54,920 nt of DNA from a virus (taxonomy: Duplodnaviria > Caudoviricetes): IMG/VR virus record IMGVR_UViG_3300013005_000046, positions 1-54,920 of that record, one strand, 5' to 3'. This document shows, in pieces, positions 11,321 to 24,993 of this stretch; the first letter of the stretch is position 1, and each line of letters begins with the position of its first letter. The notes under the pieces are model-generated. The model saw nothing but the letters and a program-made list of their open reading frames with translations. It was not told the DNA's origin and ran no database searches. Made by a program: the position numbers and the translations under genes.

Positions 11321-12058
11321 TTAACGGACTGAAATATGGATACTTTTTAGGCTTGCCATAGCGTCTAAATCAGTTCTTAGTTGTGGGATGATTCCAGACC
11401 TTTTTTCAGAATCCCCACTTAGAAAAATATTGTGAGTTTCTGAGATTAAGTATTCGTGCTGATATTTTAAGGTGGCAACAAAAGACGTCACTTCATATCC
11501 ACTATTTAAAAAATAAGACCTCAGCCAAAGCTCTGTATTTGAGTGAATTGTGGTTACTAAAAACTCATAGGTTATCTGAACTTGACTTCCAAGTTTTAAA
11601 CTTTTTAGGTTGATAGATCTTGTTTCTGGATTATATAAAGAAGCTTCTCCAGCGGGCAAGTATTTTTCTTCTGATATAGAGTCTTTACCAATAGAAAGAG
11701 TAACCCATCCGTCAGTTCCTTCGGTTGCCCCTAGTTTTATTTGATTATTTTTTAAGGCTTGATAACTAGCCCAACCTGGCTCTTGTTCATAGACTGTTTG
11801 ATAAGATTTTCCATCTTTACCAGGAAGCCCCCTATCTCCCTTTGGGCCAACTTTTCCGTCTTTACCATCTAAACCATTTTTTCCAGATAAGCCATCTTTT
11901 CCAGCTGGACCTCTATCGCCTTTTGGACCAGGATCCCCTTTAGGTCCAGGTACTGGAATAAATAAGCCCTCGTTAGGCAGAGGGATTGAACCTTCTACCT
12001 TAGAAGCATAACTGTTTTTGCTGCTAACTGGAAAATCCATGCTTTTGGAAGATGACAA
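11321..12058 (-). CDS. Collagen-like (Gly-X-Y) protein
   Basis: Run of GPKGDPGPKGDRGPAGKDG triplets. Confidence 0.85.
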   Translation of the reverse strand: MSSSKSMDFPVSSKNSYASKVEGSIPLPNEGLFIPVPGPKGDPGPKGDRGPAGKDGLSGKNGLDGKDGKVGPKGDRGLPGKDGKSYQTVYEQEPGWASYQALKNNQIKLGATEGTDGWVTLSIGKDSISEEKYLPAGEASLYNPETRSINLKSLKLGSQVQITYEFLVTTIHSNTELWLRSYFLNSGYEVTSFVATLKYQHEYLISETHNIFLSGDSEKRSGIIPQLRTDLDAMASLKSIHISVR

Positions 12059-12157
12059 GGTTTATCCTTTGGGGTTATTTTGTTTTGAAGACTTTATTGC
12101 TAATCCTTATAATTGGAGGAATGGCAGGTTTATTATTTGAAATTTTAATAACTGGCA

Positions 12158-12538
12158 TTACAAACTTCCTAAGGTTATGTCCCCAAAAACTTTTATCGTT
12201 CCAATGACTGGAGTCCAAACAACGTCATCAATAGTGACCTGAAGGTCAAAGGCAAGCTCTGCGATTACTGAGTTAAATCCTGATCCCCAAAATTCTGTAA
12301 TTTCTGGAGATGCTTTGATGTCTACATAGCCATCGCCTGATACAACCTCTAGCTCATCAAGAACGTCGCCTCTGAAATCATATGATGTGGCAGCAAATAC
12401 CCAGCCTTCAGTATCAAAATAGGTTTTTTCATCGTTTTCAAGGAATTCTACACGAAGACTAGCGGTATCTCCTCTAACGACTTGCCATTTAACGTTGGCG
12501 GGATCAGCACCAAAAGTGTCAAGATTGTAATAGCTCAT
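12158..12538 (-). CDS. Baseplate/tail adaptor-like protein, paralog of 6600-7010
   Basis: WQVVRGDTA versus WTVVRGDTA. Confidence 0.7.
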   Translation of the reverse strand: MSYYNLDTFGADPANVKWQVVRGDTASLRVEFLENDEKTYFDTEGWVFAATSYDFRGDVLDELEVVSGDGYVDIKASPEITEFWGSGFNSVIAELAFDLQVTIDDVVWTPVIGTIKVFGDITLGSL

Positions 12539-12562
12539 ATAAAGAATTATAGCATAATTAAA

Positions 12563-12612
12563 TGACTAATACCCAGGCAAGTGGGTATGAGAGACAAACC
12601 TGGGTACTAGTC
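12563..12612. other. Intergenic stem-loop (14-bp stem, ~21-nt loop)
   Basis: GACTAATACCCAGG ... CCTGGGTACTAGTC. Confidence 0.6.
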
Positions 12613-12644
12613 TTTAAAATTATATCATACTTGTAGTTTATCGA

Positions 12645-12800
12645 ATTGTTATAAAATTGTTGTCAAATTGTTATCAAAAATATTGTTTGCACAAAAGTAA
12701 AAAGTGTGGTATATTGTTATAATTAGGTTTTAGAAAAGCTATATATAAATATATAAATATATTAATATATAGTATAGTTTATATATATTATATATAATAA
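12645..12800. promoter_or_regulatory. Three 11-bp-period ATTGTT(A/G)T repeats followed by an almost pure AT tract (origin-like)
   Basis: Repeats at 12645, 12656, 12667; TA-rich run at about 12740-12800. Confidence 0.5.
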
Positions 12801-12837
12801 TCGGTTTTTAAGTTTTTAGCTCTTGACGATTTAGCGA

Positions 12838-13194
12838 CTACTTGATTTTTTTCTTTATATCCTGAATCTCTTTTTGGATCTCCATAAATGCAAGATCTCC
12901 AGATTCTAGTCTAGCTTCTATTCTGTCTACTGCGTCTTTTAATGAGCTACCGCCATTATTTCTTAGTTCTCCGTCAATACGGTTTAAGCGTTCCATGACT
13001 CCGTGAACTTCGCCTCTGCCAGGTTTTGCTGGGGTACCAGCCCAATCTTCAATAAACTGCTCTAAGGCAGTAATGAGCTTTTTAATCTTTTTAAAAAATG
13101 GATTAATAAAAGTTGCGATAGCAAACCAGGCTCCGAGAATCGTGGCAATCCATCCAGATGCCATTAAAATCATATTAAGTTCGTCGGAAGTCAT
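12838..13194 (-). CDS. Single-TM membrane protein with coiled coil (holin-like/lysis accessory)
   Basis: N-terminal TM segment; NGGSSLKDAVDRIE motif seen in actinophage membrane proteins. Confidence 0.65.
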   Translation of the reverse strand: MTSDELNMILMASGWIATILGAWFAIATFINPFFKKIKKLITALEQFIEDWAGTPAKPGRGEVHGVMERLNRIDGELRNNGGSSLKDAVDRIEARLESGDLAFMEIQKEIQDIKKKIK

Positions 13195-13354
13195 AATGTT
13201 ATAATTATAATATAGTTTTTAAAGTTCGACGGCATAAAGCGATTTTTAAAACGGCGATTTTAAATTCGGCGGTATAGAGATACCAAACACCACCCCCTAC
13301 AACAAATGCATGTCCCATGCAACTATGTAGGATTAGGTGTGATATAATTCATTT

Positions 13355-13552
13355 ATGGGAGACGTCACATTCTTTGATCTATTTGATCCAAACCAACCTC
13401 GTAGCGATAAAGAGCTAATTGAGAAGAGGCTAGCTATTTGCAATGCCTGTCCCGATTTAAAGAAAAATACCAAAAGATGCAAGCACTGTGGCTGCTTTAT
13501 GGAATTAAAGACTACTCTTAGCCAGGCTAGCTGTCCAATAGGAAAATGGTAA
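13355..13552 (+). CDS. Small Cys-rich protein, paralog of 7276-7515
   Basis: Same Cys pattern; leaderless after TGATATAAT. Confidence 0.75.
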   Translation: MGDVTFFDLFDPNQPRSDKELIEKRLAICNACPDLKKNTKRCKHCGCFMELKTTLSQASCPIGKW

Positions 13553-13741
13553 TATGATTCTTTCAATAAATACGCTGTACGGGCTTATAAGGCTTCAGAA
13601 GATGTCGACCTACTCATTACATGCTTTATATGCTGTAATGGCTTCAGGATGGCATACAGGGGTTAATAGGGGGTTATTGTTGTTTGGTCGTCAAGAAAGA
13701 ATTCTTGGACTTATACCCTCGAAAAATATGAGAATCTAAAA

Positions 13742-13801
13742 TTAGTTAGATTCAGGCTGTGGATTTTGTTTTCCACAACCACAATTAGTACAATTACACA
13801 T
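13742..13801 (-). CDS. 19-aa Cys-rich micro-peptide MCNCTNCGCGKQNPQPESN
   Basis: TGATATAAT 6 nt before ATG, the same leaderless pattern as larger genes. Confidence 0.45.
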   Translation of the reverse strand: MCNCTNCGCGKQNPQPESN

Positions 13802-13830
13802 AAAATAATTATATCACGATAGGAGACAAA

Positions 13831-14007
13831 ATGGAGAAGAAGCCTTATATTAAGTATTATGAGGATAGGGATTGGTTGCAGAACGAATACAGTACCTTGC
13901 AAAAATCATCAAGAGAGATTGGCAATGATTTGCATGTATCTTATAAGCTAATTGAGATTTGGCTGAAGAAGTTCAATATCCCTGTCAGACAGCCTATTTC
14001 TTATTAG
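13831..14007 (+). CDS. 58-aa putative helix-turn-helix protein
   Basis: AGGAG RBS; MEKKPYIKYYEDRDWLQNEY..KSSREIGNDLHVSYKLIEIWLKKFNIP. Confidence 0.7.
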   Translation: MEKKPYIKYYEDRDWLQNEYSTLQKSSREIGNDLHVSYKLIEIWLKKFNIPVRQPISY

Positions 14008-14080
14008 GTTTCTGGCTGCACCTATTGCAAAACATGTCTTGAAAGATCTTTAGTGCCCATGGGCATGATGGCTTATCCAT
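13994..14080 (-). CDS. 28-aa micro-protein MDKPSCPWALKIFQDMFCNRCSQKPNKK
   Basis: TACAAT 6 nt before ATG. Confidence 0.4.
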   Translation of the reverse strand: MDKPSCPWALKIFQDMFCNRCSQKPNKK

Positions 14081-14126
14081 AGGATTATTGTATACCCGAT
14101 TTTTTAAAAAATAGCCAAATGTGGCT

Positions 14127-14207
14127 TTAGGGTTTATCTTTGTAGCGTATCAGGATATAGATCATAGCTCCTGTGAATAGGAAGAATACTATATGTGGCC
14201 AGTCCAT
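14127..14207 (-). CDS. 26-aa single-TM micro-protein
   Basis: GGTATAAT 6 nt before ATG; MDWPHIVFFLFTGAMIYILIRYKDKP. Confidence 0.5.
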   Translation of the reverse strand: MDWPHIVFFLFTGAMIYILIRYKDKP

Positions 14208-14376
14208 GATCTTATTATACCCCCGAATTTGTGCGTTCACACGAAAATCTGAAAAATTTTAAATTTACCAAAATCTGAATATTTCTAACAAGTGTATGAT
14301 GCATAATTTGTATAAAAAAACAAGTGATTATTAGTGAGCACACACACGCCCAAATAATAATAACTTGATTTCTATC

Positions 14377-14446
14377 TAGTGCCAGCAACTAGTGCCAGCA
14401 TTTTTATAAACAGTAGTGCCACTATTTTTGTGAACACTACTGCCAC
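14377..14446. repeat. Short direct repeats: TAGTGCCA three times plus TACTGCCA
   Basis: Seen directly in non-coding DNA. Confidence 0.6.
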
Positions 14447-14451
14447 ATTTT

Positions 14452-14667
14452 TTATTTGATAATGCTTAGACTAGCTAATGCGTCTTCCGCATTGTCAAAC
14501 ATTGCAGTAAAAGCATTTAGACTTTTTTGCTTTCGCAATTCGCCACACACTTTCAAATCGTGATTAGCTTTCCAAGCTTTAGCGTGAAGGTAATAGCTAA
14601 CGCTATCTTCCTGAGTGTAGTTGCAGTTAGTGCAAACAGTTTTTCTATACATTGTAGTTTTAGTCAT
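14452..14667 (-). CDS. Hypothetical early protein
   Basis: AAGGA RBS; CxxC. Confidence 0.7.
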   Translation of the reverse strand: MTKTTMYRKTVCTNCNYTQEDSVSYYLHAKAWKANHDLKVCGELRKQKSLNAFTAMFDNAEDALASLSIIK

Positions 14668-14766
14668 TTATTTATTTTCCTTTTCATTGAGAGAGATAGT
14701 TAGTGTAGTGATAGAAGAGATAGCATTGTCGTATTCTTCCCAAGTGTCGAAGGTTAGTGTTATCAA
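14668..14766 (-). CDS. 32-aa protein MITLTFDTWEEYDNAIS..., paralog of 15691-15786
   Basis: Hand translation; near-identical N-terminus to the plus-strand copy. Confidence 0.7.
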   Translation of the reverse strand: MITLTFDTWEEYDNAISSITTLTISLNEKENK

Positions 14767-14921
14767 ACTCTACCCCCAAAACTTTTGACTAACTTAGTTA
14801 GTGATAGCAATTCATTTTGGAATTGTGGCGTAAGCTCTACGCCGTTAGCAATAGAAGAATTAGCTATTTTTAGCATAGTATCGTATTGCTTTTGGTAATA
14901 AGCTACTGATTTGATTTTCAT
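14763..14921 (-). CDS. 52-aa hypothetical protein
   Basis: Hand translation MKIKSVAYYQKQYDTML...; tightly packed between neighbours. Confidence 0.6.
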   Translation of the reverse strand: MKIKSVAYYQKQYDTMLKIANSSIANGVELTPQFQNELLSLTKLVKSFGGRV

Positions 14922-14923
14922 AA

Positions 14924-15124
14924 CTATTCACCGTCCCAACACTCAGGGCTTGACTCGCAAGACTCCCAATAGGCGAAACTTGAACAAAAGGCACAGCCTT
15001 GAAACTTATCGTGTTGGACACAGTAATACCTATCTTGGTATTCCTCGCAACAGCGGAATAGGTCATCACCGCTTAGGGTGTAGTAAAAGCCTTCAGGCTT
15101 TAGAATTGTTTTGACTTGAGTCAT
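14924..15124 (-). CDS. Cys-rich hypothetical early protein
   Basis: GAAAGGA RBS; first gene of the leftward operon. Confidence 0.7.
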   Translation of the reverse strand: MTQVKTILKPEGFYYTLSGDDLFRCCEEYQDRYYCVQHDKFQGCAFCSSFAYWESCESSPECWDGE

Positions 15125-15156
15125 AATTTGTATCCTTTCTAAAATACTTGGCTTTT

Positions 15157-15202
15157 TTATTCGCTAGGCTCATACCGCTAAGGGTCTTATTTGCTAGGCT
15201 CA
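15157..15202 (-). repeat. Tandem 16-bp repeat TGAGCCTAGCRAATAA (30-nt period) in a 5' leader
   Basis: Copies at 15157-15172 and 15187-15202. Confidence 0.75.
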
Positions 15203-15243
15203 AAAGCTCTTTTTTGTTTATTCTTATTTATTTATCTATCTAT

Positions 15244-15525
15244 ACACTATCACGACCTACCGACATTTATAGCCCTTTTTAGCCCTTTTTTACCCCTTTT
15301 TTTATTTTGTTTACCTATTGTTCACTTAGTAAACAGTTATCCACAAGTTATCCACAGCTTTGTTATCAAATTGTTATAAAACTACGGCGTGTCGGTTTGA
15401 CATCTAGAAAATTTTTTGCGCCCCTGTGTATAACCCTGTGGATAAGTCTGTTATGAAACTGTTATAAAAACCCCCCTGAATTACGGCGTGTCGATTTGAC
15501 TTTGTCGGTGGTCTGTGATAGGTTA
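15244..15525. promoter_or_regulatory. Divergent early promoter region with DnaA boxes, TGTTAT direct repeats and GACAC boxes
   Basis: TTATCCACA at 15337 and 15348; TGTGTATAA 15425; TGTGGATAA 15437; TGTCGG-N10-TAnnnT on both strands. Confidence 0.75.
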
Positions 15526-15550
15526 TAAAGTAGTTAGAAAGGATAAATAA

Positions 15551-15691
15551 ATGACTAAATTGCTTACAAGGACTTGGGGAGATGTAGCCTATTGCGACAT
15601 CTGCGACAACTACACTGAGCAGGTGTATGTTGAGGAGTTCAATCAGAAGTGCTGTGAGAATTGCTACCTAGCGTATGGGGAGTGCAACTAA
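15551..15691 (+). CDS. 46-aa Cys-rich protein (two CxxC)
   Basis: GAAAGGA RBS; hand translation. Confidence 0.7.
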   Translation: MTKLLTRTWGDVAYCDICDNYTEQVYVEEFNQKCCENCYLAYGECN

Positions 15692-15786
15692 TGATAACAC
15701 TAACATTTGAAACTTGGGAAGAGTTTGATAACGCTATCTCAGGAATTGTTTCTATCGCTACCGAAATTTCTAAGGAGAATAAATGA
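15691..15786 (+). CDS. 31-aa protein MITLTFETWEEFDNAIS...
   Basis: Paralog of 14668-14766. Confidence 0.7.
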   Translation: MITLTFETWEEFDNAISGIVSIATEISKENK

Positions 15787-15872
15787 TGATACTAATTCAG
15801 GAAGTTGTTTACTCAGATGACACAATGTTTGACATCGAAACTATTCTAAGCGAAAAGGAAGTTGAAATATGA
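15783..15872 (+). CDS. 29-aa acidic micro-protein
   Basis: AGGAG RBS; ATGA overlaps at both ends. Confidence 0.55.
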   Translation: MMILIQEVVYSDDTMFDIETILSEKEVEI

Positions 15873-15976
15873 TTTTTTATAACGGGTTCAATCTATTGTT
15901 AGATTTAGTTCTTGTGTTTATTGCTTTTGTAATTGGGCACGGAATTGGATACCGCAAAAATAAACCTCCGTTCTAA
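15869..15976 (+). CDS. 35-aa single-TM protein ending KNKPPF
   Basis: Hand translation MIFYNGFNLLLDLVLVFIAFVIGHGIGYRKNKPPF. Confidence 0.65.
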   Translation: MIFYNGFNLLLDLVLVFIAFVIGHGIGYRKNKPPF

Positions 15977-16134
15977 CGGCGTGTCAACTTGACAAGATCC
16001 CGAAAGGGCTGCGCCCCTGTGGATAACTCTGTGTAAAACTTTGTTATGATACTGTTATGAAAACCCCCCGAAATCTCCCCAAAATGTCGGTGGTTTATGA
16101 TAGGGTTTTAGTAAGTCAAAAGAAAGGAAACAAA

Positions 16135-16290
16135 ATGGATTTGATGTGTGTTTACTGCGAGGGTGTCTTTTCACCTGACACTTATGTCTGCTCAAATTGT
16201 GATGAATACAAGGGGCTAATGCCACTGAAAGACGCTGTTGAGTATCTGGATTTGCCAATTGGTGATTTCCCAGAACTACGCCACGCCTAA
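16135..16290 (+). CDS. Zn-ribbon-like small protein
   Basis: GAAAGGA RBS; CVYC..CSNC. Confidence 0.7.
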   Translation: MDLMCVYCEGVFSPDTYVCSNCDEYKGLMPLKDAVEYLDLPIGDFPELRHA

Positions 16291-16337
16291 AAATGTCGGT
16301 GGGTTATGCTAGGTTGGAACTAACGAAAGGAAATAAA

Positions 16338-16502
16338 ATGAAAAAAACAGAAATTGCTAGTGGTGGATTAGTTGAGCTTGTAAAGTCAAAGACTAACCTA
16401 ACAGACATTGGAGCTTATGCCTATGGGCTAACCCTTGTTTGGGCTTTGGCTGATGACAAGCTAAAGAATAAAGTTATTGAGCTAATTGAAAGTGAGGTCT
16501 AA
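16338..16502 (+). CDS. Hypothetical protein
   Basis: GAAAGGA RBS before ATG 16338. Confidence 0.7.
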   Translation: MKKTEIASGGLVELVKSKTNLTDIGAYAYGLTLVWALADDKLKNKVIELIESEV

Positions 16503-16682
16503 ATGACAGAAGAAGAATTTGATGATTGGCTAGATGATGTTTACCCAACTTACCAAATTGCTGGTGTTGAATTGCGTCCCTCGCAAATGCTAAAGAACTG
16601 CGACCCTATCGCATACAGAATTGCGTTATCAGAATGTGAAGATAGAGAAGAAGAATGGAATGGCTACTTTGACAACAAGTGA
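16503..16682 (+). CDS. 59-aa acidic phage protein (DPIAYR motif)
   Basis: GAGG RBS; MTEEEFDDWLDDVYP...LKNCDPIAYRIAL. Confidence 0.7.
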   Translation: MTEEEFDDWLDDVYPTYQIAGVELRPSQMLKNCDPIAYRIALSECEDREEEWNGYFDNK

Positions 16683-16764
16683 ATTGGAAGAACTAATTTT
16701 CAAGATTGACCTAATGCTAACTGAAGATGTTGGCGAATTGTTTACAACACCAGAGGAGAAATAA
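16660..16764 (+). CDS. 34-aa acidic micro-protein
   Basis: Hand translation MATLTTSELEELIFKIDLML... Confidence 0.5.
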   Translation: MATLTTSELEELIFKIDLMLTEDVGELFTTPEEK

Positions 16765-16905
16765 ATGGAACTAGGTTTGATTGTTATTTTTATAATCGTT
16801 GGCGTTTCAATTTTTGTTGGAATACAACTTGCCGCAATTTTATTTTTGCTACAAGAAAATAATAGACTTGGCGAAGAGTTAGAAAAAAACGAACCGCCTT
16901 TTTGA
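16765..16905 (+). CDS. 46-aa single-TM protein ending EKNEPPF
   Basis: GAGGAG RBS; MELGLIVIFIIVGVSIFVGIQLAAILFLLQENNRLGEELEKNEPPF. Confidence 0.7.
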   Translation: MELGLIVIFIIVGVSIFVGIQLAAILFLLQENNRLGEELEKNEPPF

Positions 16906-17019
16906 TTTGACAATCACCGAGAAATCGGGGCGCACCTGTTATCAAATTGTTATAAAAATTCTTACGAAGACACGGAAAAACCCCCCAGAAATGTCGGTGG
17001 CTTATGCTAAGATTATTTT

Positions 17020-17172
17020 ATGTTGAACAGAAGTAATGAAGCAAGACGCAAGGCAGAGAGCCAAGCGTTATTCCAGTCTATGCTAAAGGCACCTCACCTA
17101 GTTCAGACTCCAAAGAAATACAAAGGCAGCCGTCAGTCTACAAAGGCTAAGGCAATAAAGGAGAGCGAATGA
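17020..17172 (+). CDS. 50-aa basic protein
   Basis: Leaderless behind a TGTCGG promoter; K/R-rich. Confidence 0.65.
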   Translation: MLNRSNEARRKAESQALFQSMLKAPHLVQTPKKYKGSRQSTKAKAIKESE

Positions 17173-17321
17173 TTTTTCCAGGCTTGATTCACTATGTTTG
17201 TGAAGACTGTAATAAGTTTGTTCACACCAATGCGGTCTATTCCTATGACCTCAAGAATGTCTGTGGTAGATGTTATGCTATTCAGGCAGGACACCCTTCA
17301 ACAAGAAAGTTGGTAAAGTAA
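17169..17321 (+). CDS. 50-aa Zn-finger-like protein
   Basis: AGGAG RBS; CEDC..CGRC. Confidence 0.6.
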   Translation: MIFPGLIHYVCEDCNKFVHTNAVYSYDLKNVCGRCYAIQAGHPSTRKLVK

Positions 17322-17515
17322 TGTCAAAGTATGCCGTATCAGTTCAGCTATCAGGTAATGATGGAAATGCTTTTGCCGTAATGGGAGCCGTAAAGTCTGC
17401 CCTCAAAAAAGCTGGAGCAAGCAAGGAAGAAATTGAGCAATACCTAACAGACTCTATGTCTGGCGACTACGACAACCTGTTGCGTGTAGCAATGGAATGG
17501 GTAAAGGTAAAGTAA
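17321..17515 (+). CDS. Conserved small phage protein (GxDGNAF motif)
   Basis: LSGNDGNAFAVMG..SGDYDNLL. Confidence 0.75.
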   Translation: MSKYAVSVQLSGNDGNAFAVMGAVKSALKKAGASKEEIEQYLTDSMSGDYDNLLRVAMEWVKVK

Positions 17516-17640
17516 TGCTAGGACAACTAAGCATAAGCTTTTGTGATACCTGTAATGAGTTTGGTATGGTGTCGGTAGTAGATGGTAAACTAATGGTACA
17601 GTATTGTGATTGTGAAGTAGAAACTCTAGAAGGAGAATAG
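17515..17640 (+). CDS. 41-aa Cys-containing micro-protein
   Basis: Coupled TAATG start; CDTC..CDC. Confidence 0.5.
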   Translation: MLGQLSISFCDTCNEFGMVSVVDGKLMVQYCDCEVETLEGE

Positions 17641-17642
17641 AA

Positions 17643-17936
17643 ATGGGATACGCAACAGCAGTTGGACTTACAGATACAGACCTAACCCTATCAGACCAAT
17701 TGGCAATTCACTTTAGCAGTAATTGTTATCCACCAATTCCAAAAATAATGATACCTGTAGCAGTAGCAGCTATTGACGCCTATTGGGAAGAAGACTACGC
17801 TAGAGTAATCAAGTTGCCCGAAGGTGTTGAGTTTAGAAATGGTGAAGATTGGGTATTCGCCTCACAAGCAGTTGAGTCCCTCAGACTTGACGCCTGGTTG
17901 CAGGAAATTTACTGGACAGACGAAGACGAAGAGTAA
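17643..17936 (+). CDS. Hypothetical protein
   Basis: AGGAG RBS; HFSSNCYPPIP motif. Confidence 0.75.
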   Translation: MGYATAVGLTDTDLTLSDQLAIHFSSNCYPPIPKIMIPVAVAAIDAYWEEDYARVIKLPEGVEFRNGEDWVFASQAVESLRLDAWLQEIYWTDEDEE

Positions 17937-18125
17937 ATGGATAACCTGATTGTAATTATCTTTGCAGTCTGGATAGTAATAATGTTTCTTGCTTTGGAGT
18001 GACGTCCCCCAGAAATGGGGCGCACCTATTGATCCACAATAGAATGTTAATTAAGAATTAACTAAAAAATCCCCCAAAATGTCGGTAGGTCATGGTAATG
18101 TTATCTTATCAACGAAAGGAAACCC

Positions 18126-18644
18126 ATGGACTACTACGCAATTTATTCAGGTCTAATCAAGAACGCTACTTTTGGTCAAGTAGAGCAAGCAAGCAAGTGG
18201 TATCTAGACGCAGAACGTGTTGCAGCACAGGTTGCACGTAATCTAGATTCTACCCTTGAGGTTGGTGCAAGCGTAGTGTCTGCATTCTCACCTAGAGAGC
18301 GTTGGACTAACAACGTTACTAAGGCGATTAGCTTCTCACTTGGTAATCACATTCCAGGATTCAAGAACAACATGCTAATGGCTAACAATGCAATAGCCTT
18401 TGGGTATGACGCTCTAAAAGGATTGAAGACTAACGCATTCGCTAGAGCTATCGCAGGTGATGAGAATGCTGTAGTGATTGACGTATGGATGTTGCGAGCT
18501 GTTGGTATTGAAAAGAAAACACCTAATCAAACACAGTATAAGCAATTAGCTGACGCAGTTGCTAAGGTTGCATTTGATAATGGCATGACACCTAGAGCAA
18601 CTCAAGCCCTAATCTGGATTGTTGTTAGAGGTAGTTCGGAATAG
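18126..18644 (+). CDS. Conserved actinophage protein, possibly a DNA-glycosylase-like fold
   Basis: WY..A, SPR..W, VVIDVWM.RA and QA.IW motifs. Confidence 0.65.
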   Translation: MDYYAIYSGLIKNATFGQVEQASKWYLDAERVAAQVARNLDSTLEVGASVVSAFSPRERWTNNVTKAISFSLGNHIPGFKNNMLMANNAIAFGYDALKGLKTNAFARAIAGDENAVVIDVWMLRAVGIEKKTPNQTQYKQLADAVAKVAFDNGMTPRATQALIWIVVRGSSE

Positions 18645-18932
18645 CTACCCCTCGAAAGAGGGCGCACCCTTTTGCCTGATTGTCAAGTTTAAGAAGATAA
18701 CAATTTTTCCCCCAAATCGTTATAAATAAAAGCTGCTAAAGACTTATAAATGTCGGTGGGTGGGGCTATAATAGAAACATCACAGAAAAAGACAAAAAGT
18801 AATACAAAAAGTTGTTATCAAAATGTTATCAAAATGGTATTGACAATTTGACCTTTTTCTGGGATAATGGATTTATCAACAAGTCGTTGGTAAATAATCA
18901 AAACAGTCCCTCTGGGGCGGAAAGAAGCAAAA

Positions 18933-19085
18933 ATGAAAGACACTCTAACTGTTGGCTCACAGTTCACTACTGCTAAGTCTGGCGTAGTAGGCACAATTCA
19001 GGAAGTCAAGGAGAACAAGAACGGCTCGTTCCGTGTTCGCCTAGATGTAAATGGTGAGCCTCGCTGGACTACTGTTAGCAAGTAA
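18933..19085 (+). CDS. 50-aa small beta (SH3/KOW-like) protein
   Basis: Hand translation MKDTLTVGSQFTTAKSGVVGTIQEV..RVRLDVNGEPRWTTV. Confidence 0.7.
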   Translation: MKDTLTVGSQFTTAKSGVVGTIQEVKENKNGSFRVRLDVNGEPRWTTVSK

Positions 19086-19091
19086 TCCGCC

Positions 19092-19119
19092 TCTGCTGGG
19101 TATCAGATAAAACTGCCCA
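19092..19119 (+). ncRNA. Compact H-type pseudoknot motif, copy 1
   Basis: UCUG-CU-GGGUA-U-CAGA-UAAAAC-UGCCC. Confidence 0.6.
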
Positions 19120-19194
19120 ACCCTCACAAATGTCGTATGCTAATGCTACAATGATAAAGCAATAAACCCAATCAAGAAAAGGAAGAAACAAACT

Positions 19195-19638
19195 ATGGCA
19201 AGAACCCTGTCAGTAAAAATCCCAGTCGCAAAACTAATCGCAGATGTAGAGCAGTCTATTGCTAAGATAGATGTTGCTATTGCTGAGTATGCTGAAAAGC
19301 GTAAGCAGTATGAAGCAGAAAGCAAGCAGTATGACCTAGACATTGTTGCTCACGCTATCAAAGCACTATCAGACCCAAGTAATGTTGGAACAGAACACGG
19401 CTCATTAGTTCGTGTGTCAAGAGGATACAACGGAAACATTTCTGTTGATTTTGATGTTGAGGCACTTGGACTACCAGCCAAGCCAGTAGAGCCAGCAAGA
19501 CCAAATGAGAAAACTTATTTTGGTCGTGAGTATGCCACACGCAAAGAAGTCTTAGAGCGTAATCTTCGTATTCTAAAGATGACAACCCAAGAGGAAGTTT
19601 CGGCAAGTTCTTACTCTGCTGTTATTGACCTTATCTAA
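19195..19638 (+). CDS. Hypothetical coiled-coil protein
   Basis: ORF with RBS behind a TGTCG promoter. Confidence 0.8.
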   Translation: MARTLSVKIPVAKLIADVEQSIAKIDVAIAEYAEKRKQYEAESKQYDLDIVAHAIKALSDPSNVGTEHGSLVRVSRGYNGNISVDFDVEALGLPAKPVEPARPNEKTYFGREYATRKEVLERNLRILKMTTQEEVSASSYSAVIDLI

Positions 19639-19680
19639 ACTTAGGGAACAAGCCTTGCTTTGACAAGGAAAACGCCCGAA

Positions 19681-19708
19681 GCAACCTGAGCAAGTTGTGA
19701 AACTGCTT
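19681..19708 (+). ncRNA. Compact pseudoknot motif, copy 2
   Basis: CAAC-CU-GAGCA-A-GUUG-UGAAAC-UGCUU. Confidence 0.6.
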
Positions 19709-19857
19709 CCCCTTCCCCCTCTAAAGCTGAAGATCGTAAGATCACAAATACTGCGGGGGACTCAAAGGGGGGCGCACCTTATAACAGATAGATAACATCT
19801 TTAAGAAAAGCTTTAAGAACCCTTGTAAATGTCGGTGGGTACCTGTAAAATATAGAC

Positions 19858-19998
19858 ATGACAAAAAACCAGATTATAGATGAACAAGCAGAAGAAATCC
19901 GTGAGGCCTTGGCTGACTACTATGCTAACCCAGAGGAGTACACACTCGAAGACTGGGAAGAAATCTTTCAGGATAGGGACCCATTCGAATTCCTATAA
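19858..19998 (+). CDS. 46-aa highly acidic protein
   Basis: Leaderless; ...EEIREALADYYANPEEYTLEDWEEIFQDRDPFEFL. Confidence 0.65.
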   Translation: MTKNQIIDEQAEEIREALADYYANPEEYTLEDWEEIFQDRDPFEFL

Positions 19999-20046
19999 TG
20001 TCGGTGGGTCATGGTAGAATTCAAAAAAGAAATGAAAGGAAAACAA

Positions 20047-20247
20047 ATGTCTTATGACACAATAAGAAACGTTGGCTACGTATCGTATGACGGAAACTAT
20101 GGAGCGGAAGCGGACTTGCTAATGTTTGATAGTAATGCACTTACCTTGCAGCAGTGGGAAACCCTAGGTGAGCTAGGCGATAACTCCAGGTATGAGTATG
20201 TTGAAGCAGTATTCAACAACAAGGACCTAACTGAGTGGGAGGGCTAA
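20047..20247 (+). CDS. Hypothetical protein
   Basis: GAAAGGA RBS. Confidence 0.7.
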   Translation: MSYDTIRNVGYVSYDGNYGAEADLLMFDSNALTLQQWETLGELGDNSRYEYVEAVFNNKDLTEWEG

Positions 20248-20585
20248 TGTTGGATACTCTAGATACTTATCTAATCGATGAGTTCACTGATGAAGCTAAA
20301 GGTATTGCATTCGACACATGTCACAAAATTTATATTCTCATGGATAACGAACAGGTTGACCTTATGCGTGAGTATGGTTATGGTGATGCAAATGACCCAG
20401 ACAGTCTACTGACGTCGTACCAGCTGACACCAAGAGAGATGAGCAACAAGGTTGTTGAGTGGTTCCATGGCTCGTGTGGCCTAAGATTTATCAGTGCCGT
20501 TTATTCTGATGAGCGAGGTTTTGTAGACGTCGTCAGTCAGTTTGAAGGCAATGGATATGACGAAGATGAGGATGAAGACTTGTAG
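20247..20585 (+). CDS. Acidic hypothetical protein
   Basis: GGAGG RBS; FDTCHKIY..W...SCGLRFI. Confidence 0.75.
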   Translation: MLDTLDTYLIDEFTDEAKGIAFDTCHKIYILMDNEQVDLMREYGYGDANDPDSLLTSYQLTPREMSNKVVEWFHGSCGLRFISAVYSDERGFVDVVSQFEGNGYDEDEDEDL

Positions 20586-20619
20586 TGCATTCCCTTACTT
20601 CCTTTCTGGAATGTACTAC

Positions 20620-20647
20620 CGTCCTGGCCATGACGTAAATCTGGCCA
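20620..20647 (+). ncRNA. Compact pseudoknot motif, copy 3 (preceded by a 12-bp hairpin at 20582-20619)
   Basis: CGUC-CU-GGCCA-U-GACG-UAAAUC-UGGCC. Confidence 0.6.
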
Positions 20648-20791
20648 CCTTCAATTTGCGCCCCGTCGGGCGTGTCGGATCCATTTACGAAGGCTATTAA
20701 GAATGCCCCAAAATAAACCCAGTCTTGACAATGTCGGTGGTTGGGTGTAAAATAAGACTATAATAAACAACCCCTAAAGAAAGTAGAAAAC

Positions 20792-21805
20792 ATGGCACAT
20801 TTGCTAGAATCACAAAACGGAGAAACCGCATTTGCTTCATTCAGACAGCCAGCTTGGCATGGTCTAGGCGAAGTATTCACTGAGGAAGTATCCACAGCAG
20901 AAATGCTAAAGAAAGCTAAACTAAACAATTGGGATGTTCGCTTGGAAGACATCGAGATTCCTAATCAGTTTAGTTCCGACAAGAATTATTCTTTTGTCGT
21001 TAGAGATAACCCGTTTACCTTAGGCAACAAGGATGTTCTTGGTGTTGTTGGTGAGCGTTATGTTCCTCTCCAGAACGAGGACTTGTTTGATTTCGCAGAC
21101 AACCTACTAGACAATGGTGGTCGTTGGGAAACAGCAGGTTCAATCAAGGGCGGTAGAGTTGTATTCGGTGCTCTTGCTCTTGAGCGTGAAACAGTTCTTG
21201 ACAAGGACGGCGTTGCTGACAAGATAAACACTTATCTTCTTGTAAACACATCTCATGACGGGTCTATTGCTATTCAGGCAAGTATCACACCAGTTCGTGT
21301 TGTTTGTGCTAACACACTAAACCTTGCTCTTGGTAATCGTGGTCGTGGTGGTTCAGTAAAGCAGTCATTCAAGATTAGACACACACAGACTGCTCAGGGT
21401 AAGGTTGCTGTTGCTCGTGAGGCTCTTGGTCTTGCTAATGCTTACATGGATGAGTTCGACAAAATGGCAAGTGCTATGATTGAAACTGAAATTACTAAGG
21501 CACAGTTTGACAAGATTGTAAACTTGGCTTATCCAATGCCAAAGGATGACGCTAAGAAAGTTTCAATCACCAAACACGCTAACAAGATTGACCTCATCAA
21601 CGACATCTATGTTGGTGATTTCAATAACACAATTAGCGGAACAGCTTGGGGAGCATTGAACGCTCTAACCGAAAGACTAGACTGGCACAGAGCAGGTCGC
21701 AAGGGACAGACTGAAACAATTTTGTCTGGTGCTTCTGGTTTTGACCCAGTCATCAACGCAGAGAAGAATCGCTTGATGAAAATTGTTCAGAGTGTAATGG
21801 CATAA
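20792..21805 (+). CDS. DUF932 / phage-plasmid LGT_TIGR03299 family protein
   Basis: PAWHGLG, WETAGSIKGG, NTSHDGS, TPVRVVCANTL and IRHT motifs. Confidence 0.9.
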   Translation: MAHLLESQNGETAFASFRQPAWHGLGEVFTEEVSTAEMLKKAKLNNWDVRLEDIEIPNQFSSDKNYSFVVRDNPFTLGNKDVLGVVGERYVPLQNEDLFDFADNLLDNGGRWETAGSIKGGRVVFGALALERETVLDKDGVADKINTYLLVNTSHDGSIAIQASITPVRVVCANTLNLALGNRGRGGSVKQSFKIRHTQTAQGKVAVAREALGLANAYMDEFDKMASAMIETEITKAQFDKIVNLAYPMPKDDAKKVSITKHANKIDLINDIYVGDFNNTISGTAWGALNALTERLDWHRAGRKGQTETILSGASGFDPVINAEKNRLMKIVQSVMA

Positions 21806-21812
21806 CCCAAAA

Positions 21813-21838
21813 CTCCTAGGCATGAGAATAAACTGCCT
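21813..21838 (+). ncRNA. Compact pseudoknot motif, copy 4
   Basis: CUC-CU-AGGCA-U-GAG-AAUAAAC-UGCCU. Confidence 0.6.
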
Positions 21839-21979
21839 CCAATTTCGGGGCGCAATCTAATAATAACCTAGTTATCTATCTAAAATTCTTTAAGAAGATC
21901 CTAAAATTTTTGCCGAAATCTCTTGACTTTTGTCGGTGGTTAGCCTTATACTTATAACAACAAACAGAAAGGAACCCAA

Positions 21980-22477
21980 ATGGGAACCAGAAACCTAACA
22001 GTAGTAAAGAATCTAGAAGGCACTACAAAGATTGCTCTATACGGACAATGGGATGGCTATCCTAGCTATTCAGGTGTTGAAGCCCTAAAGTTTCTAAGAG
22101 ATAAAGTAAATAGGGATAACCTATTGGTAGAACTACAGCAAGTAGAGTTTATTAGCGAGGAAGAATCAGAAGCCCTTTGGGAAACCTTTGAGCATGATGA
22201 CAATGACCCAACCAAAGCACAAACAGCTATGCCAGGACTAACCAGGGATACTGGTATCGGTATTCTAGAGATAGTTGCTAATACTATGAATCCTATCAAG
22301 ATGATTGACAATAGTGAGTTTAGGAACGATACCCTATTTTGTGAGGGTGTCTATGAGGTAGACTTTAGCACTAACAAGTTTATTACTACCTATGCTGACA
22401 AGGTTGTTGAGTATGACCTTGATACCCTGCCAAGTGATGAAGAATACCTAGCCCAATGGGAAACTGCTAACGCATAA
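21980..22477 (+). CDS. Conserved phage protein (MGTR..YxQWDGYP family)
   Basis: Motif and GAAAGGA RBS. Confidence 0.8.
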   Translation: MGTRNLTVVKNLEGTTKIALYGQWDGYPSYSGVEALKFLRDKVNRDNLLVELQQVEFISEEESEALWETFEHDDNDPTKAQTAMPGLTRDTGIGILEIVANTMNPIKMIDNSEFRNDTLFCEGVYEVDFSTNKFITTYADKVVEYDLDTLPSDEEYLAQWETANA

Positions 22478-22491
22478 GAAGGAATAGAAAA

Positions 22492-22644
22492 ATGACAATG
22501 AATGAACTAATGAGCAAAATCCTAGAAATCCTTCCTAACGCTGTATTTGGCGAAGAGGACAATGGAGAAATCCTAATCGCAACAGGATTTGTAGAACGCA
22601 AAGACGGAACCCTAGCAGAATTGGATGACAGCGATGAACTTTGA
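22492..22644 (+). CDS. 50-aa acidic protein
   Basis: Hand translation; AAGGA RBS. Confidence 0.6.
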   Translation: MTMNELMSKILEILPNAVFGEEDNGEILIATGFVERKDGTLAELDDSDEL

Positions 22645-22822
22645 TAATTTAGATACAAAACATGTAACAGGAGACCTAGCAACAGACGTTCAGTTCATCA
22701 AAGATAATCTTAGTATTGATGACGCTGAGTTCTTTAGACAGGCTATGGCCAACATAATGTCGGAGGGTACTGCTAGAATAGAATCCCTAACCAATGAAGA
22801 GATAGATAGGTTCTTTGAATGA
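22634..22822 (+). CDS. Hypothetical protein
   Basis: ORF track; operon packing. Confidence 0.6.
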   Translation: MNFDNLDTKHVTGDLATDVQFIKDNLSIDDAEFFRQAMANIMSEGTARIESLTNEEIDRFFE

Positions 22823-23013
22823 TGAGTCTAACAAGTAATGACCTAAAAACTTGGCAGGTAGAGTATTCGGCTGCTTACTGGGTAGAAGCAACAAGTGAAG
22901 AAGAAGCTATTGATAAGGCTATGGAAGAACACTCCGAATTTCCTGACGGTAGTTGGGAAGCTATGATTGACCCCTATGATAGCAACAACTTCAATACCCT
23001 AGGAGAAAAGTAG
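22819..23013 (+). CDS. Small acidic protein with VEAxSxEEA motif (DpnD/PcfM-like)
   Basis: WVEATSEEEAI. Confidence 0.65.
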   Translation: MMSLTSNDLKTWQVEYSAAYWVEATSEEEAIDKAMEEHSEFPDGSWEAMIDPYDSNNFNTLGEK

Positions 23014-23204
23014 TGCAGACTATCAGGATAACTATTGACTTAGACTATGACTTAGAGTCTCACTACAATAGCCCAGAGGAATACAAAAACCTATCTTTAG
23101 ACGCTATCGTAGATGACTTGGAAGATAATGTGTATGAGGATTTGTTAGACCTTATGCGTAATGATAGATTGAGATTTTGGTCAGAGACGAGGGTAATCGC
23201 CTGA
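23013..23204 (+). CDS. Acidic hypothetical protein
   Basis: AGGAG RBS; GTG start. Confidence 0.65.
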   Translation: MQTIRITIDLDYDLESHYNSPEEYKNLSLDAIVDDLEDNVYEDLLDLMRNDRLRFWSETRVIA

Positions 23205-23339
23205 CCTGGTCCCCCGAAAGGGGTGCGCCCACTATTATAACGATCTTGTTATCTAATAAAAAACCTTTACGAACTACTTGACTTTTTCCCCGAATTGTGA
23301 GATACTTGATTTATCAAACCCCAACCCTTAGGAGCTAAC

Positions 23340-23516
23340 GTGCCTACTTTCAAAATCCAAAGAGAATACACCAACTGGGAAGAAATTACAGTTGAAGCTG
23401 ATTCAAAAGAACATGCCCTAGAACTTGCAGATGATGATGACACATGGGACATGGCCTATGATGTAAACTCCTACAACTACACTGGAGAGACATGGGTAGG
23501 AGAAGCAGATGAGTAA
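23340..23516 (+). CDS. 58-aa acidic protein with VEADS motif
   Basis: AGGAG RBS; GTG start; hand translation. Confidence 0.65.
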   Translation: MPTFKIQREYTNWEEITVEADSKEHALELADDDDTWDMAYDVNSYNYTGETWVGEADE

Positions 23517-23618
23517 GAAATGTTTCCACTACAACTGGGGTGGATACTGTGCCCTTTGCGGTAAGCAACTATACAATAAAGGACTAGGCGTAGACCTATA
23601 CAAAGGAAAGAAAGTCTA

Positions 23619-24137
23619 ATGCACGTATTACAATACATAGCTGTTCAGGCAGATAGCAATGACGAAGCCTTTCGTACCGTCAAGGATACACTTGAATCCG
23701 AGCTAGGCAATAACGAGTATTCAACTAATGCTTGGTTTGACTGGTTCGTAGTTGGTGGCGGTAGGTTTGTAGAAGGAAACCCATATGAAGAATCTACTAA
23801 TAGTATAATCTCCTATGACGAAGCACCAGCTGAGTATCTGGCTATGGTTGATAGTCTTATTAGTAATCGTATGGATGAGTTTGAGGCCTACCGTAAACAC
23901 TATAACGAAAAGGGTGTTGACATTGAAGCTAAGTTAGATAACTATAGAGGTGTTATGAACTATGACTTTGAGCTATACCCCTTGAAAAAAATGATTGACA
24001 TGATTCAGGGTGAGTGGGACATGAACTCATACTTTTATGACATGCACCATTCCAGCACTAACCCTGACCACATGCACAAGAGCCTTGACTTAGGCAACAA
24101 GAACTGGTATGCTGTACCTGTAGACTTTCACTTCTAA
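23619..24137 (+). CDS. Conserved phage protein (DWxxxGGR ... VDxH family)
   Basis: MH start, WFDWFVVGGGRF, VPVDFHF end. Confidence 0.8.
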   Translation: MHVLQYIAVQADSNDEAFRTVKDTLESELGNNEYSTNAWFDWFVVGGGRFVEGNPYEESTNSIISYDEAPAEYLAMVDSLISNRMDEFEAYRKHYNEKGVDIEAKLDNYRGVMNYDFELYPLKKMIDMIQGEWDMNSYFYDMHHSSTNPDHMHKSLDLGNKNWYAVPVDFHF

Positions 24138-24149
24138 AAAGGAAACCCA

Positions 24150-24545
24150 ATGACAGAAACCCCATACACAGAATACCAAGGTTGGCATGAGTGGGCAGAA
24201 AAGTTCAAGCCTATAAAAAACCACCTTGTCAATGACCCTGACCAGCAAATGTTTGAGACCTATGGTGAAGAGGTTGAGTTTGTATCTAATTATGATAACA
24301 AGTATGTTTGGACTTGGCTTCAAGGAGACATGTCAGACCTTGTTTGTGCTGGCTACCACTATGTAAATAGATTGGGATACTACATTTCCGAGGTACCTTG
24401 GGAAAACGAAGATGACTATGCTTTACTATCAGTTGAGGTAGAGTGTGAATGCTATAAAGAGGAAGGCTATGAAGATGGCGAATACGGAAGAGCTGACTGT
24501 GAGGAGTGTGAAGGTAATGGACACATCACTAAGTACATCGACTAA
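24150..24545 (+). CDS. Hypothetical protein with C-terminal Zn ribbon
   Basis: FETYGEE..GYHYVNRLGY; CEC..CEECEG. Confidence 0.8.
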   Translation: MTETPYTEYQGWHEWAEKFKPIKNHLVNDPDQQMFETYGEEVEFVSNYDNKYVWTWLQGDMSDLVCAGYHYVNRLGYYISEVPWENEDDYALLSVEVECECYKEEGYEDGEYGRADCEECEGNGHITKYID

Positions 24546-24912
24546 ACCAGTATCACAAGGTTACGGTAGATTCAAGAGGAATGCAAATGCAGATAGAACT
24601 AAGTTTATCTATGACCTAAACATCTATCAGCTGGAGCAGTTGGACGCAGATGGGGAGTACAGATTCTTTGGACCATGGTACATCCATGTCTATGAGTATA
24701 CTGGCCAGACGACGGAAGAGGTATCAGTTCCGATCGAGCTCACACCTGAAGAGCAAGAGTTTCTAATCGATAACGACCCCTACTTTGATAATGAGGTAGA
24801 CACGTGGTATGGATTAGATGGCTTTATATTTGAGAAGTGGGAGGTCATCTCAGATAGACTAAAGTTTATCTTTGAAATGCTTCCTAAATATAAAGATGAA
24901 GTTCTATTCTAG
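24517..24912 (+). CDS. Acidic hypothetical protein
   Basis: ORF track; start adjusted. Confidence 0.65.
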   Translation: MDTSLSTSTKPVSQGYGRFKRNANADRTKFIYDLNIYQLEQLDADGEYRFFGPWYIHVYEYTGQTTEEVSVPIELTPEEQEFLIDNDPYFDNEVDTWYGLDGFIFEKWEVISDRLKFIFEMLPKYKDEVLF

Positions 24913-24915
24913 GAC

Positions 24916-24944: not shown

Positions 24945-24993
24945 GGAATAGCTACAAAAACCAATAATAACCAACAACCCTTAGGAGAACCAA

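Follow-up and report, generated by a model that had tools for sequence, protein, structure and literature searches.

The early-gene arm of an uncultured phage appears to be expressed from promoters of a host class, on which sites resembling those of host regulators are stacked. The DNA in question is the IMG/VR virus record IMGVR_UViG_3300013005_000046, analyzed over its whole length of 54,920 b (hereafter, the window; rated 48% complete, without end repeats). Its early intergenic regions combine core promoters of the PafBC type, tandem pairs of DnaA boxes, repeats of TGTTAT with an 11-bp period, and a 10-bp word, ACGGCGTGTC. An initial annotation had proposed that host-regulator-type sites are stacked on early promoters, and at the sequence level this proposal is supported both by related phages and by candidate host genomes. 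Because the sites are stacked on PafBC-like promoters, expression of the first phage genes is probably coupled to the cell's state. We estimate at about 0.55 the probability that the early arm is gated by host state through PafBC-type promoters, DnaA-box pairs, and repeats of the GlnR/MtrA class; binding of host proteins to these motifs, and the direction of any effect, are predictions.

The content of guanine and cytosine (GC) along the window is ~36-46%. Pfam and PHROGs matches revealed tail-fibre-like proteins, a PASTA-domain protein, and NlpC/P60, M23, and SLT wall hydrolases; Hsp20, a ribonucleotide reductase, five tRNAs, and one WhiB-like protein are also encoded. We read the window as a phage of actinobacteria. 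Up to ~15.1 kb, genes point leftward; from 15551 to ~25.9 kb, small genes point rightward. On balance, the source is probably an uncultured phage of low-GC freshwater actinobacteria, with the stretch at 15.24-22.8 kb as its early-gene arm. At the nucleotide level, positions 15200-20000 had no match in the GenBank phage collection. The DUF932 gene (20792-21805) has relatives on 175 viral contigs, several of which are 90-119 kb long; four are rated complete, and the complete relatives measure ~110 kb. The best 80 of these 175 contigs (1.30 Mb in total) served as the set of related phage loci. Motif counts in the related loci and in candidate hosts were set against reversed-motif controls and those in the window against shuffled sequence. 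Transcript starts were taken as ~7 nt past the -10 hexamer, and promoters are named here by the position of their TGTCGG element.

When intergenic regions were aligned, a repeat stronger than the motifs of the initial annotation became apparent: (A)ATGTCGGTGG, located 7 nt before a TANNNT hexamer. Exact copies of TGTCGG-N10-TANNNT occur 13 times in the window (0.20 expected; maximum of 2 in 200 shuffles), 12 of them on the + strand from 15503 to 22758 and one on the - strand at 15265, pointing leftward. The published PafBC consensus is tGTCgg(N10)tA(N3)T, with an element at -23 to -28 that replaces the -35 hexamer ("sigma adaptation"), and PafBC is activated by single-stranded DNA in mycobacteria (PMC8635444). 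Only three of the 13 phage copies also have a TTGACA or TTGACT -35 hexamer, most having none. By match to the consensus, we assign the early promoters to the PafBC type; these core promoters had been overlooked in the initial annotation. Consensus sigma-70 promoters, in contrast, were not enriched in the window (17 versus 17.2 expected), and we therefore regard the DnaA, TGTTAT, and ACGGCGTGTC motifs as upstream modules of PafBC-type promoters. The same promoter type was found 568 times (9 in controls) in the related loci, 77 of 80 of which contain it. Consensus, spacing, and the usual lack of a -35 hexamer are shared with the PafBC-dependent RecA-NDp promoters (PMC8635444, PMC6789036); unlike these, the 13 copies lie on a phage and would drive small early genes, with dependence on PafBC as a prediction. 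No phage promoter of the PafBC type appears, judging by titles, among the matches listed for the PafBC literature. The predicted starts of P19830 and P16992 fall on or beside ATG codons at 19858 and 17020 (19846-19860 and 17008-17022), and some early messages may therefore be leaderless.

DnaA boxes (TTWTNCACA) are present at all the places where they had been reported, i.e., 15337 and 15348 on the + strand and 15425, 15437, 16018, and 16030 on the - strand. Taken over all of the window, the degenerate pattern shows no enrichment (10 versus 7.18 +/- 2.23 expected; 17 of 100 shuffles reach 10). The six early-arm boxes lie inside 750 bp, where the maximum in 300 shuffles was 3, and form three tandem pairs with a period of 11-12 bp, an arrangement seen in 0 of 300 shuffles. 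Four of the six are perfect TTATCCACA. In the related loci, perfect TTATCCACA was counted 344 times (8 in controls; 71 of 80 loci), and it is conserved in relatives whose DUF932 protein is only ~70% identical to that of the window. Clustered or tandem boxes are a feature of oriC and of dnaA promoters, and in the candidate host genome G382, dnaA is flanked by TGTGGATAA-cat-TGTGGATAA immediately before it and by TGTGGATAA-ag-TGTGGATAA immediately behind it; this tandem geometry (12 bp and 11 bp) is that of the phage pairs. The initial interpretation of these boxes as DnaA sites is thus supported, at the sequence level, by the perfect boxes, their conservation in the family, the geometry at candidate-host dnaA, and the failure to find a DnaA domain in the phage records searched, and the pairs are candidate docking sites for host DnaA. 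An AT-rich stretch (15200-15330) lies beside the first pair. A one-mismatch box at 18030, TGATCCACA, follows a GCGCACC core.

The TGTTAT repeats of the initial annotation are likewise real, exceeding shuffles, though each of their + strand starts had been given one base too low: they begin at 15361/15372, 15449/15460, 16042/16053, 16937/16948, and 18813/18824, with an inverted pair at 19781/19792. With at most one mismatch, TGTTAT-N5-TGTTAT is found 9 times in the window (0.58 expected; 0 of 100 shuffles reach 9), and the arrays comprise six exact pairs or triples and one near-exact triple. The TTGACA-17-GATAAT promoter that one array abuts fits 11 of 12 sigma-70 consensus positions. The repeats had been taken to match the MtrA consensus. 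GlnR boxes read gTnAc/GaAAC with 6-nt gaps, GTAAC being the co-crystal consensus (PMC10235972); the MtrA consensus of Streptomyces coelicolor is (G/T)T(G/A)ACC-N5-GT(G/T)ACN (PMC5650626); and in Streptomyces, MtrA sites and GlnR boxes share a core and are bound by both proteins (PMC9151340). The phage half-site, GTTAT, agrees with the core gTnAc or GT(G/T)AC at four of five positions, with T for the final C. What holds of the MtrA interpretation is probable membership in the shared class of GlnR boxes and MtrA sites (GTnAC-N6-GTnAC); MtrA itself is the less likely choice, as the corresponding word in candidate hosts marks amtB and glnA, which makes GlnR likelier.

Evidence for this came from bacterial genomes. 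A class-wide sample of 401 genomes contained 21 exact TGTTAT pairs versus 1 in the control (one hit is in G310, a genome flagged as unpublished that enters no other result). These hits were too sparse for a regulon, and the search was therefore narrowed to one family, that of G382, represented by 61 genomes of 1.0-2.2 Mb; as a host assignment the family is only a candidate. It appears to resemble streamlined freshwater actinobacteria. The exact 17-mer of the phage is present in two of its genomes, one of which, G382, measures 1.27 Mb and has 48% GC in the piece examined. TGTTAY-N5-TGTTAY gave 41 hits in 28 of the 61 genomes versus 13 in controls. Among 30 exact-site loci examined, the site lies before glutamine synthetase (glnA) in five, the ammonium transporter (amtB) in three, Peripla_BP_4 binding proteins in three, and asparaginase II, a branched-chain amino-acid permease, an oligopeptide permease, and an MFS transporter in one each; the remaining loci are unknown, other, or inside genes. 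When up to two mismatches were allowed, 28 of 30 amtB upstream regions matched compared with 1 of 30 coding controls, and 14 of 30 did so with at most one mismatch. In contrast, upstream regions of pstS-type genes matched in 1 of 28 cases at up to two mismatches (4 of 28 in controls) and show GTTCAC-type repeats instead, so that a PHO-box interpretation of the TGTTAT repeat is out for this family. Since the same word marks amtB and glnA and not pstS, the TGTTAT repeat is best described as a putative nitrogen-regulon-type box, for which GlnR would be a likelier reader than MtrA or PhoP, the latter being unlikely. Sequence does not separate GlnR from MtrA, as the two share sites in Streptomyces. 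Like the GlnR boxes and MtrA sites of Actinobacteria, the phage arrays consist of two to three units of 5-6 bp with an 11-bp period and a core close to GTnAC, a word also found before candidate-host amtB and glnA; unlike them, they are on a phage, their half-site ends in T rather than C, and they stand at about -55 to -83 from PafBC-type promoters, whereas the bacterial sites overlap a weak -35 hexamer. Two adjacent WYL genes of ~310-350 codons are present in five of five candidate host genomes, an arrangement as expected for pafB and pafC.

The motif ACGGCGTGTC-N3-TTGAC occurs at 15384, 15483, and 15976, as had been annotated (3 copies versus 0.03 expected). ACGGCGTGTC-N3-TTGACW is a phage-family-specific element with a fixed distance of 3 bp to the -35 hexamer: in the related loci ACGGCGTGTC was found 130 times and its control not once (55 of 80 loci). 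More than half of 110 unique contexts in relatives (56) are directly upstream of a complete promoter, which is TTGnnn-17-TANNNT in 33 cases, of the PafBC type in 14, and both in 9. In another 23, TTGAC stands alone, and a hairpin, a GC core, and DnaA boxes often come after it; 19 directly precede a CRP-like palindrome, and 9 fit no class. In two loci (L016 and G001), ACGGCGTGTC is paired with an inverted copy around TTGACA. The 61 candidate host genomes contain 23 copies compared with 110 of the reversed controls; this ~5-fold rarity could reflect avoidance of the word or plain compositional bias.

GACAC, the end of this element, had been taken for the WhiA box. This assignment finds no support: GACAC is the tail of a 10-bp phage-family word located 3 bp from the -35 hexamer, is at chance as a 5-mer (65 versus 72 expected in the window), and the 10-mer is under-represented in candidate hosts. 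At the Streptomyces sepX promoter, WhiA binds GACAC upstream of a ~7-nt stretch that is contacted by WhiB and adjoins the -35 hexamer, strand and spacing varying among WhiA/WhiB targets (PMC10243135). The phage resembles this system in having GACAC upstream of -35 and in encoding a WhiB-like (Wbl) protein of its own; it differs in that only 3 nt, not ~7, are left between GACAC and the -35 hexamer, without sepX-like room for WhiB, and in that the 10-bp word is no motif of host genomes. The claim that the phage encodes a WhiB was correct (open reading frame [ORF] 39601-39885 on the - strand; PF02467, E = 1.9e-12). This protein may be regarded as the first suspect for a reader of ACGGCGTGTC, because Wbl proteins, when seated on sigma region 4, contact DNA at just this place, and because WhiB is found in five of five relatives. 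Close WhiB relatives in bacterial genomes were found at five loci (L107-L111; 58-70% identity) in metagenome-assembled genomes (MAGs) labelled Polynucleobacter, Methylococcus, Chitinophagaceae, Aquiluna, and Bifidobacterium; most likely these are phage contigs misbinned into MAGs, and they give no host call.

GC cores are found at cassette borders, GCGCCCC at 15418 and 16011 and GCGCACC at 16930, 18020, 18662, and 19772. The core follows a small, mostly GAAA-loop hairpin and directly precedes DnaA or TGTTAT units. An interpretation of the units running from ACGGCGTGTC to the GC core as RNA structures was rejected, the folds being weak (z-scores of -0.1 to -2.3 over seven stretches); an Rfam scan of 12000-27500 returned tRNA only.

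The modules follow a fixed order. In the divergent control region (15266-15502), a direct DnaA pair is followed after 4 nt by a TGTTAT pair, ACGGCGTGTC-N3-TTGACA, and, after 15 nt, GCGCCCC; then come a reversed DnaA pair, 3 nt, a TGTTAT pair, a run of C, and ACGGCGTGTC-N3-TTGACT fused to TGTCGG-N10-TAGGTT. This order recurs in the unit before P16085, which lies right behind a stop codon. All three DnaA pairs are followed by a TGTTAT pair 3-4 nt on, and in both cases the promoter-proximal TGTGGATAA lies 66-67 bp before TGTCGG. The order is kept in alignment with relatives. Coordinates of the individual features are listed in the table.

Table. Control elements of the window, with the phage WhiB-like gene; distances are to predicted transcript starts
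Position	Strand	Feature	Basis or remark
12647..12674	+	Triple TGTTAT/TGTTGT/TGTTAT in the 12539-12837 gap of the leftward arm	Beyond the range of the initial annotation
15244..15265	-	Leftward PafBC-type promoter TGTCGG-N10-TAGTGT, divergent from P15503	Exact consensus
15337..15356	+	Perfect DnaA-box pair TTATCCACA-AG-TTATCCACA, 11-bp period, between divergent promoters	
15361..15377	+	TGTTAT-CAAAT-TGTTAT, 4 nt past the DnaA pair	Same 17-mer in candidate host-family genomes G382 and G447
15384..15424	+	ACGGCGTGTC-GGT-TTGACA, then GC core GCGCCCC at the -10 place; "disabled promoter" type	Relatives with same layout
15425..15445	-	DnaA-box pair, + strand TGTGTATAA-CCC-TGTGGATAA, 12-bp period, ~-106 to -86 from P15503 start	
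15449..15465	+	TGTTAT-GAAAC-TGTTAT, ~-82 to -66 from P15503 start	
15483..15524	+	First rightward promoter P15503: ACGGCGTGTC-GAT-TTGACT, TGTCGG (15503), N10, -10 TAGGTT	Motif and PafBC consensus
15976..16017	+	ACGGCGTGTC-AAC-TTGACA, small GAAA-loop hairpin, GC core GCGCCCC, directly 3' of stop codon	
16018..16038	-	DnaA-box pair, + strand TGTGGATAA-CTC-TGTGTAAAA	
16042..16058	+	TGTTAT-GATAC-TGTTAT, ~-71 to -55 from P16085 start	
16085..16106	+	P16085: TGTCGG-N10-TAGGGT	Exact consensus
Starts 16294, 16992, 17570, 18080, 18751, 19830, 19999, 20732, 21931, 22758	+	Further exact PafBC-type copies	Exact consensus
16937..16953	+	TGTTAT-CAAAT-TGTTAT directly 3' of GC core GCGCACC (16930-16936), upstream of P16992	
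18813..18868	+	Three 11-bp units TGTTAT, TGTTAT, TGGTAT (18835) abutting TTGACA-17-GATAAT promoter	
19781..19797	-	Inverted TGTTAT pair directly after GC core GCGCACC (19772-19778), upstream of P19830	
39601..39885	-	Phage WhiB-like gene (94 aa); a single copy in all 5 related records searched	PF02467

Across the related loci, the operator type switches. TGTTAY-N5-KGTTAY was counted 45 times versus 5 in controls (26 of 80 loci) and TGTGA-N6-TCACA, which we take to be the CRP consensus, 251 times versus 3 (56 of 80 loci). The two types are nearly exclusive: the loci nearest the window have TGTTAY and are without a CRP-type site, and where CRP-type palindromes occur, they stand where the TGTTAT pair would be, ~18 nt upstream of ACGGCGTGTC. 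TCGAAC-N4-GTTCGA, presumably the actinobacterial LexA box, was found 6 times (0 in controls), as one perfect copy in the early arm of each of six loci (L021, L027, L028, L037, L044, and L053), and is absent from the window. In three complete relatives, nearly all motifs fall within the ~10-kb early arm. Potential phage-encoded readers were sought in two overlapping sets of five records, with four records in each rated 100% complete. Five related records, searched in all six frames, yielded no WYL, DnaA C-terminal, or OmpR-type winged-helix domain; no CRP-type helix-turn-helix was found in the window and four relatives, no OmpR-type domain in the window, and no DNA-binding family among the early ORFs scanned with Pfam and PHROGs.

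On the reading that we prefer, the early arm would be split into small cassettes, each transcribed from a hybrid promoter of the host PafBC class, with a TGTCGG element at -26, 10 bp, a TANNNT -10 hexamer, and mostly no -35. PafBC would be required at these promoters, where it would convey an alarm of single-stranded DNA or damage. Host DnaA would dock on the tandem box pairs, signalling initiation potential, and a host regulator of the OmpR/PhoB family and the GlnR/MtrA class would dock on the TGTTAT repeats, signalling nitrogen status; bound 55-106 bp upstream, DnaA and the GlnR/MtrA-type regulator might adjust firing in either direction. About half of the copies of ACGGCGTGTC-N3-TTGACW would act within a complete promoter, the others having a GC-rich core at the -10 position. 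Together with the -35 hexamer, ACGGCGTGTC may strengthen the promoter or, with the GC core, hold polymerase or a factor at cassette borders, and it is probably read along with sigma region 4 by a phage factor. Gating by host state would cover early transcription and possibly also the start of replication. A more elaborate version, which we put forward tentatively and think somewhat improbable, makes the early arm of this abundant family of lake actinophages a multi-input reader of host state, with starts that depend on PafBC only, tuning by DnaA and nutrients, a nutrient input swapped during evolution, and takeover of sigma region 4 by WhiB via ACGGCGTGTC. The swapped input that forms part of it (GlnR/MtrA boxes in this lineage, CRP in most others, LexA in a few) is as tentative as the whole.

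Several observations weigh against gating by host state in this form. The complete relative G003 is without a perfect DnaA box, and DnaA boxes are therefore not essential to the phage family. The phage half-site is GTTAT, while host amtB and glnA sites are mostly GTTAC; moreover, the best host matches to the phage word (TGTTAYCAAAYTGTTAY) are found ahead of genes for sugar-type binding proteins, of an MFS transporter gene, and of unknown genes, so that a different regulator could read the TGTTAT repeats. The boxes stand at about -55 to -106 from predicted starts, farther than the GlnR sites in the solved GlnR-amtB complex, where the scaffold spans -64 to +13 (PMC10235972). The candidate host family was itself reached via a MAG labelled Aquiluna (G006) and chosen for small genomes, GC content, and motif sharing. 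The reader could also be any of the small proteins, of unknown fold, with which the early arm is filled, and a link of WhiB to ACGGCGTGTC is proposed on position and co-presence only. Finally, identical metatranscriptome contigs from four lake-water runs cover 15710-15875, 17333-17724, 18793-19224, 19281-19676, and parts of 20827-21468, but they show neither starts nor ends of transcripts, uncovered parts are uninformative, and the library may hold DNA, so that these contigs, which may derive from DNA, are no proof of transcript starts.

The repeats could instead be operators for phage-encoded DNA-binding proteins, arranged like stoperators and merely resembling host sites. ACGGCGTGTC is clearly private to the phage family, the type of operator changes from lineage to lineage (TGTTAT in near relatives, CRP-like in others) as it would in co-evolution with a phage protein, and small proteins without known function, several of which are cysteine-rich, crowd the early arm. 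We nevertheless consider this explanation unlikely: across relatives diverged to ~70% identity in DUF932, TTATCCACA keeps the universal DnaA consensus; TGTTAY and TGTGA-N6-TCACA are sites of host type, the former marking amtB and glnA of candidate hosts; and the domain searches of phage records described above, for DnaA, OmpR-type, CRP-type, and WYL domains, were negative. Chance, or the composition of an AT-rich intergenic region, would fit the lack of window-wide enrichment of the degenerate DnaA pattern and of GACAC, but its probability is negligible, as tandem DnaA pairs never arose in shuffled sequence and the other words exceed shuffles or reversed controls several-fold to >100-fold, in the window and in the 80 related loci, which already refutes it.

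A rather unlikely possibility, confined to the DnaA pairs, is that these serve DNA handling, whether as a DnaA-dependent origin, as a titration sink for host DnaA, or as a T5-like injection stop or membrane anchor that would mark the border of the DNA entering first. The closest complete relative encodes Pol III alpha, a DnaG-type primase, a DnaB-type helicase, and RecA, and no recognizable replication initiator was found among the 49 of its 138 ORFs that were scanned. In addition, DnaA boxes of relatives form two clusters that bracket the early arm, and the second place corresponds in the window to a repeat-rich non-coding stretch of 0.9 kb. In the pre-early DNA of T5-like phages, eight DnaA boxes occur in pairs 3 bp apart, for which a role as injection stop was proposed (bioRxiv 10.1101/866236). 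The likeness extends to consensus or near-consensus boxes paired 2-3 bp apart, in both orientations, in non-coding DNA of the pre-early or early arm; here, however, the host is actinobacterial and the pairs are fused to response-regulator-type repeats at a fixed promoter distance. The T5-type context, a terminal repeat that enters the cell first and has the pairs inside its inverted repeats, may lie beyond the part that this incomplete contig, without end repeats, covers. Location also argues for a role at promoters, since all pairs are either 66-67 bp from a PafBC-type promoter or beside a divergent promoter, and every one is fused to a TGTTAT pair. On reading the sequence, neither a DnaA-trio array nor a clear unwinding element was seen beside the pairs, no formal scan having been made.

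The 0.9-kb stretch (25809-26700) lies directly 3' of tRNA-Leu (25735-25808). It contains at least four copies of ATTACGATCC...TTTCCCCAAAT and long inverted repeats of CAAATACCAAATACC, and its DnaA boxes, at 25971, 26587, 26632, and 26663, are only degenerate. At the equivalent place, 4-6 kb downstream of DUF932, relatives have perfect DnaA-box pairs. An origin, or else a second control region, may be located here.

Host-regulator sites on phage promoters are already known as a kind, of which gating of the early arm by host state would be a variant. The nearest precedent for a nitrogen input, by analogy, is provided by marine cyanophages, which carry 1-16 NtcA sites per genome (PMC3037559). There, too, multiple sites for the global nitrogen regulator of the host, at NtcA and Pho-box promoters, are read as exploiting the nutrient-stress response; they differ in being CRP-type palindromes, as opposed to the OmpR-type direct repeats found here, and in belonging to phages of another host phylum, and in the window nitrogen-type sites are combined with DnaA boxes and PafBC-type promoters. 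If the preferred reading is true, the course of infection would hinge on the host's supply of nitrogen, its state of replication, and its signalling of DNA damage, in parallel to the NtcA and PhoB wiring of marine cyanophages, and the phage would exemplify the exploitation of sigma adaptation, for which no published case is among the literature matches listed. New here are the candidate-host evidence for a nitrogen-regulon box rather than a PHO box at the TGTTAT repeat, the match of DnaA-pair geometry at candidate-host dnaA, and the under-representation of ACGGCGTGTC in host genomes. Streamlined freshwater actinobacteria rank with the most abundant bacteria of lakes, and regulation in their phages is almost unstudied; from the phage motifs, one can guess, in a form open to testing, which DNA sites these regulators use in such poorly culturable hosts.

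Among phages of actinobacteria, a short asymmetric word also recurs at many gene junctions in cluster A mycobacteriophages, as their stoperators. These are targets of a temperate phage's repressor, whereas scans of the window revealed no repressor or integrase.

Further features of the window were noted in passing. Four early ORFs of 46-51 codons (15551-15691, 16135-16290, 17169-17321, and 17497-17640) have paired CxxC motifs and look zinc-ribbon-like; they matched no Pfam or PHROG family of known function. Of the contigs over 18793-19224, those of two runs begin at 18793/18794 and those of the other two at 18834/18835, i.e., downstream of P18751 and upstream of the predicted start of the TTGACA-17-GATAAT promoter. 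In the leftward arm, the triple at 12647 is followed (up to 12805) by a promoter-like TTGCAC-17-TATATT and then by ~65 bp of near-pure TA repeats, with no clear gene downstream of 12647-12805. Outside the early arm, a 2OG-Fe(II) oxygenase (31451-32032), Hsp20 (33301-33690), and an HslV-like peptidase (49419-49946) are encoded, and positions 34437-38538 hold a sugar-modifying cluster with glycosyltransferases, an FkbM-type methyltransferase, a cytidylyltransferase, and a Stealth-like protein.

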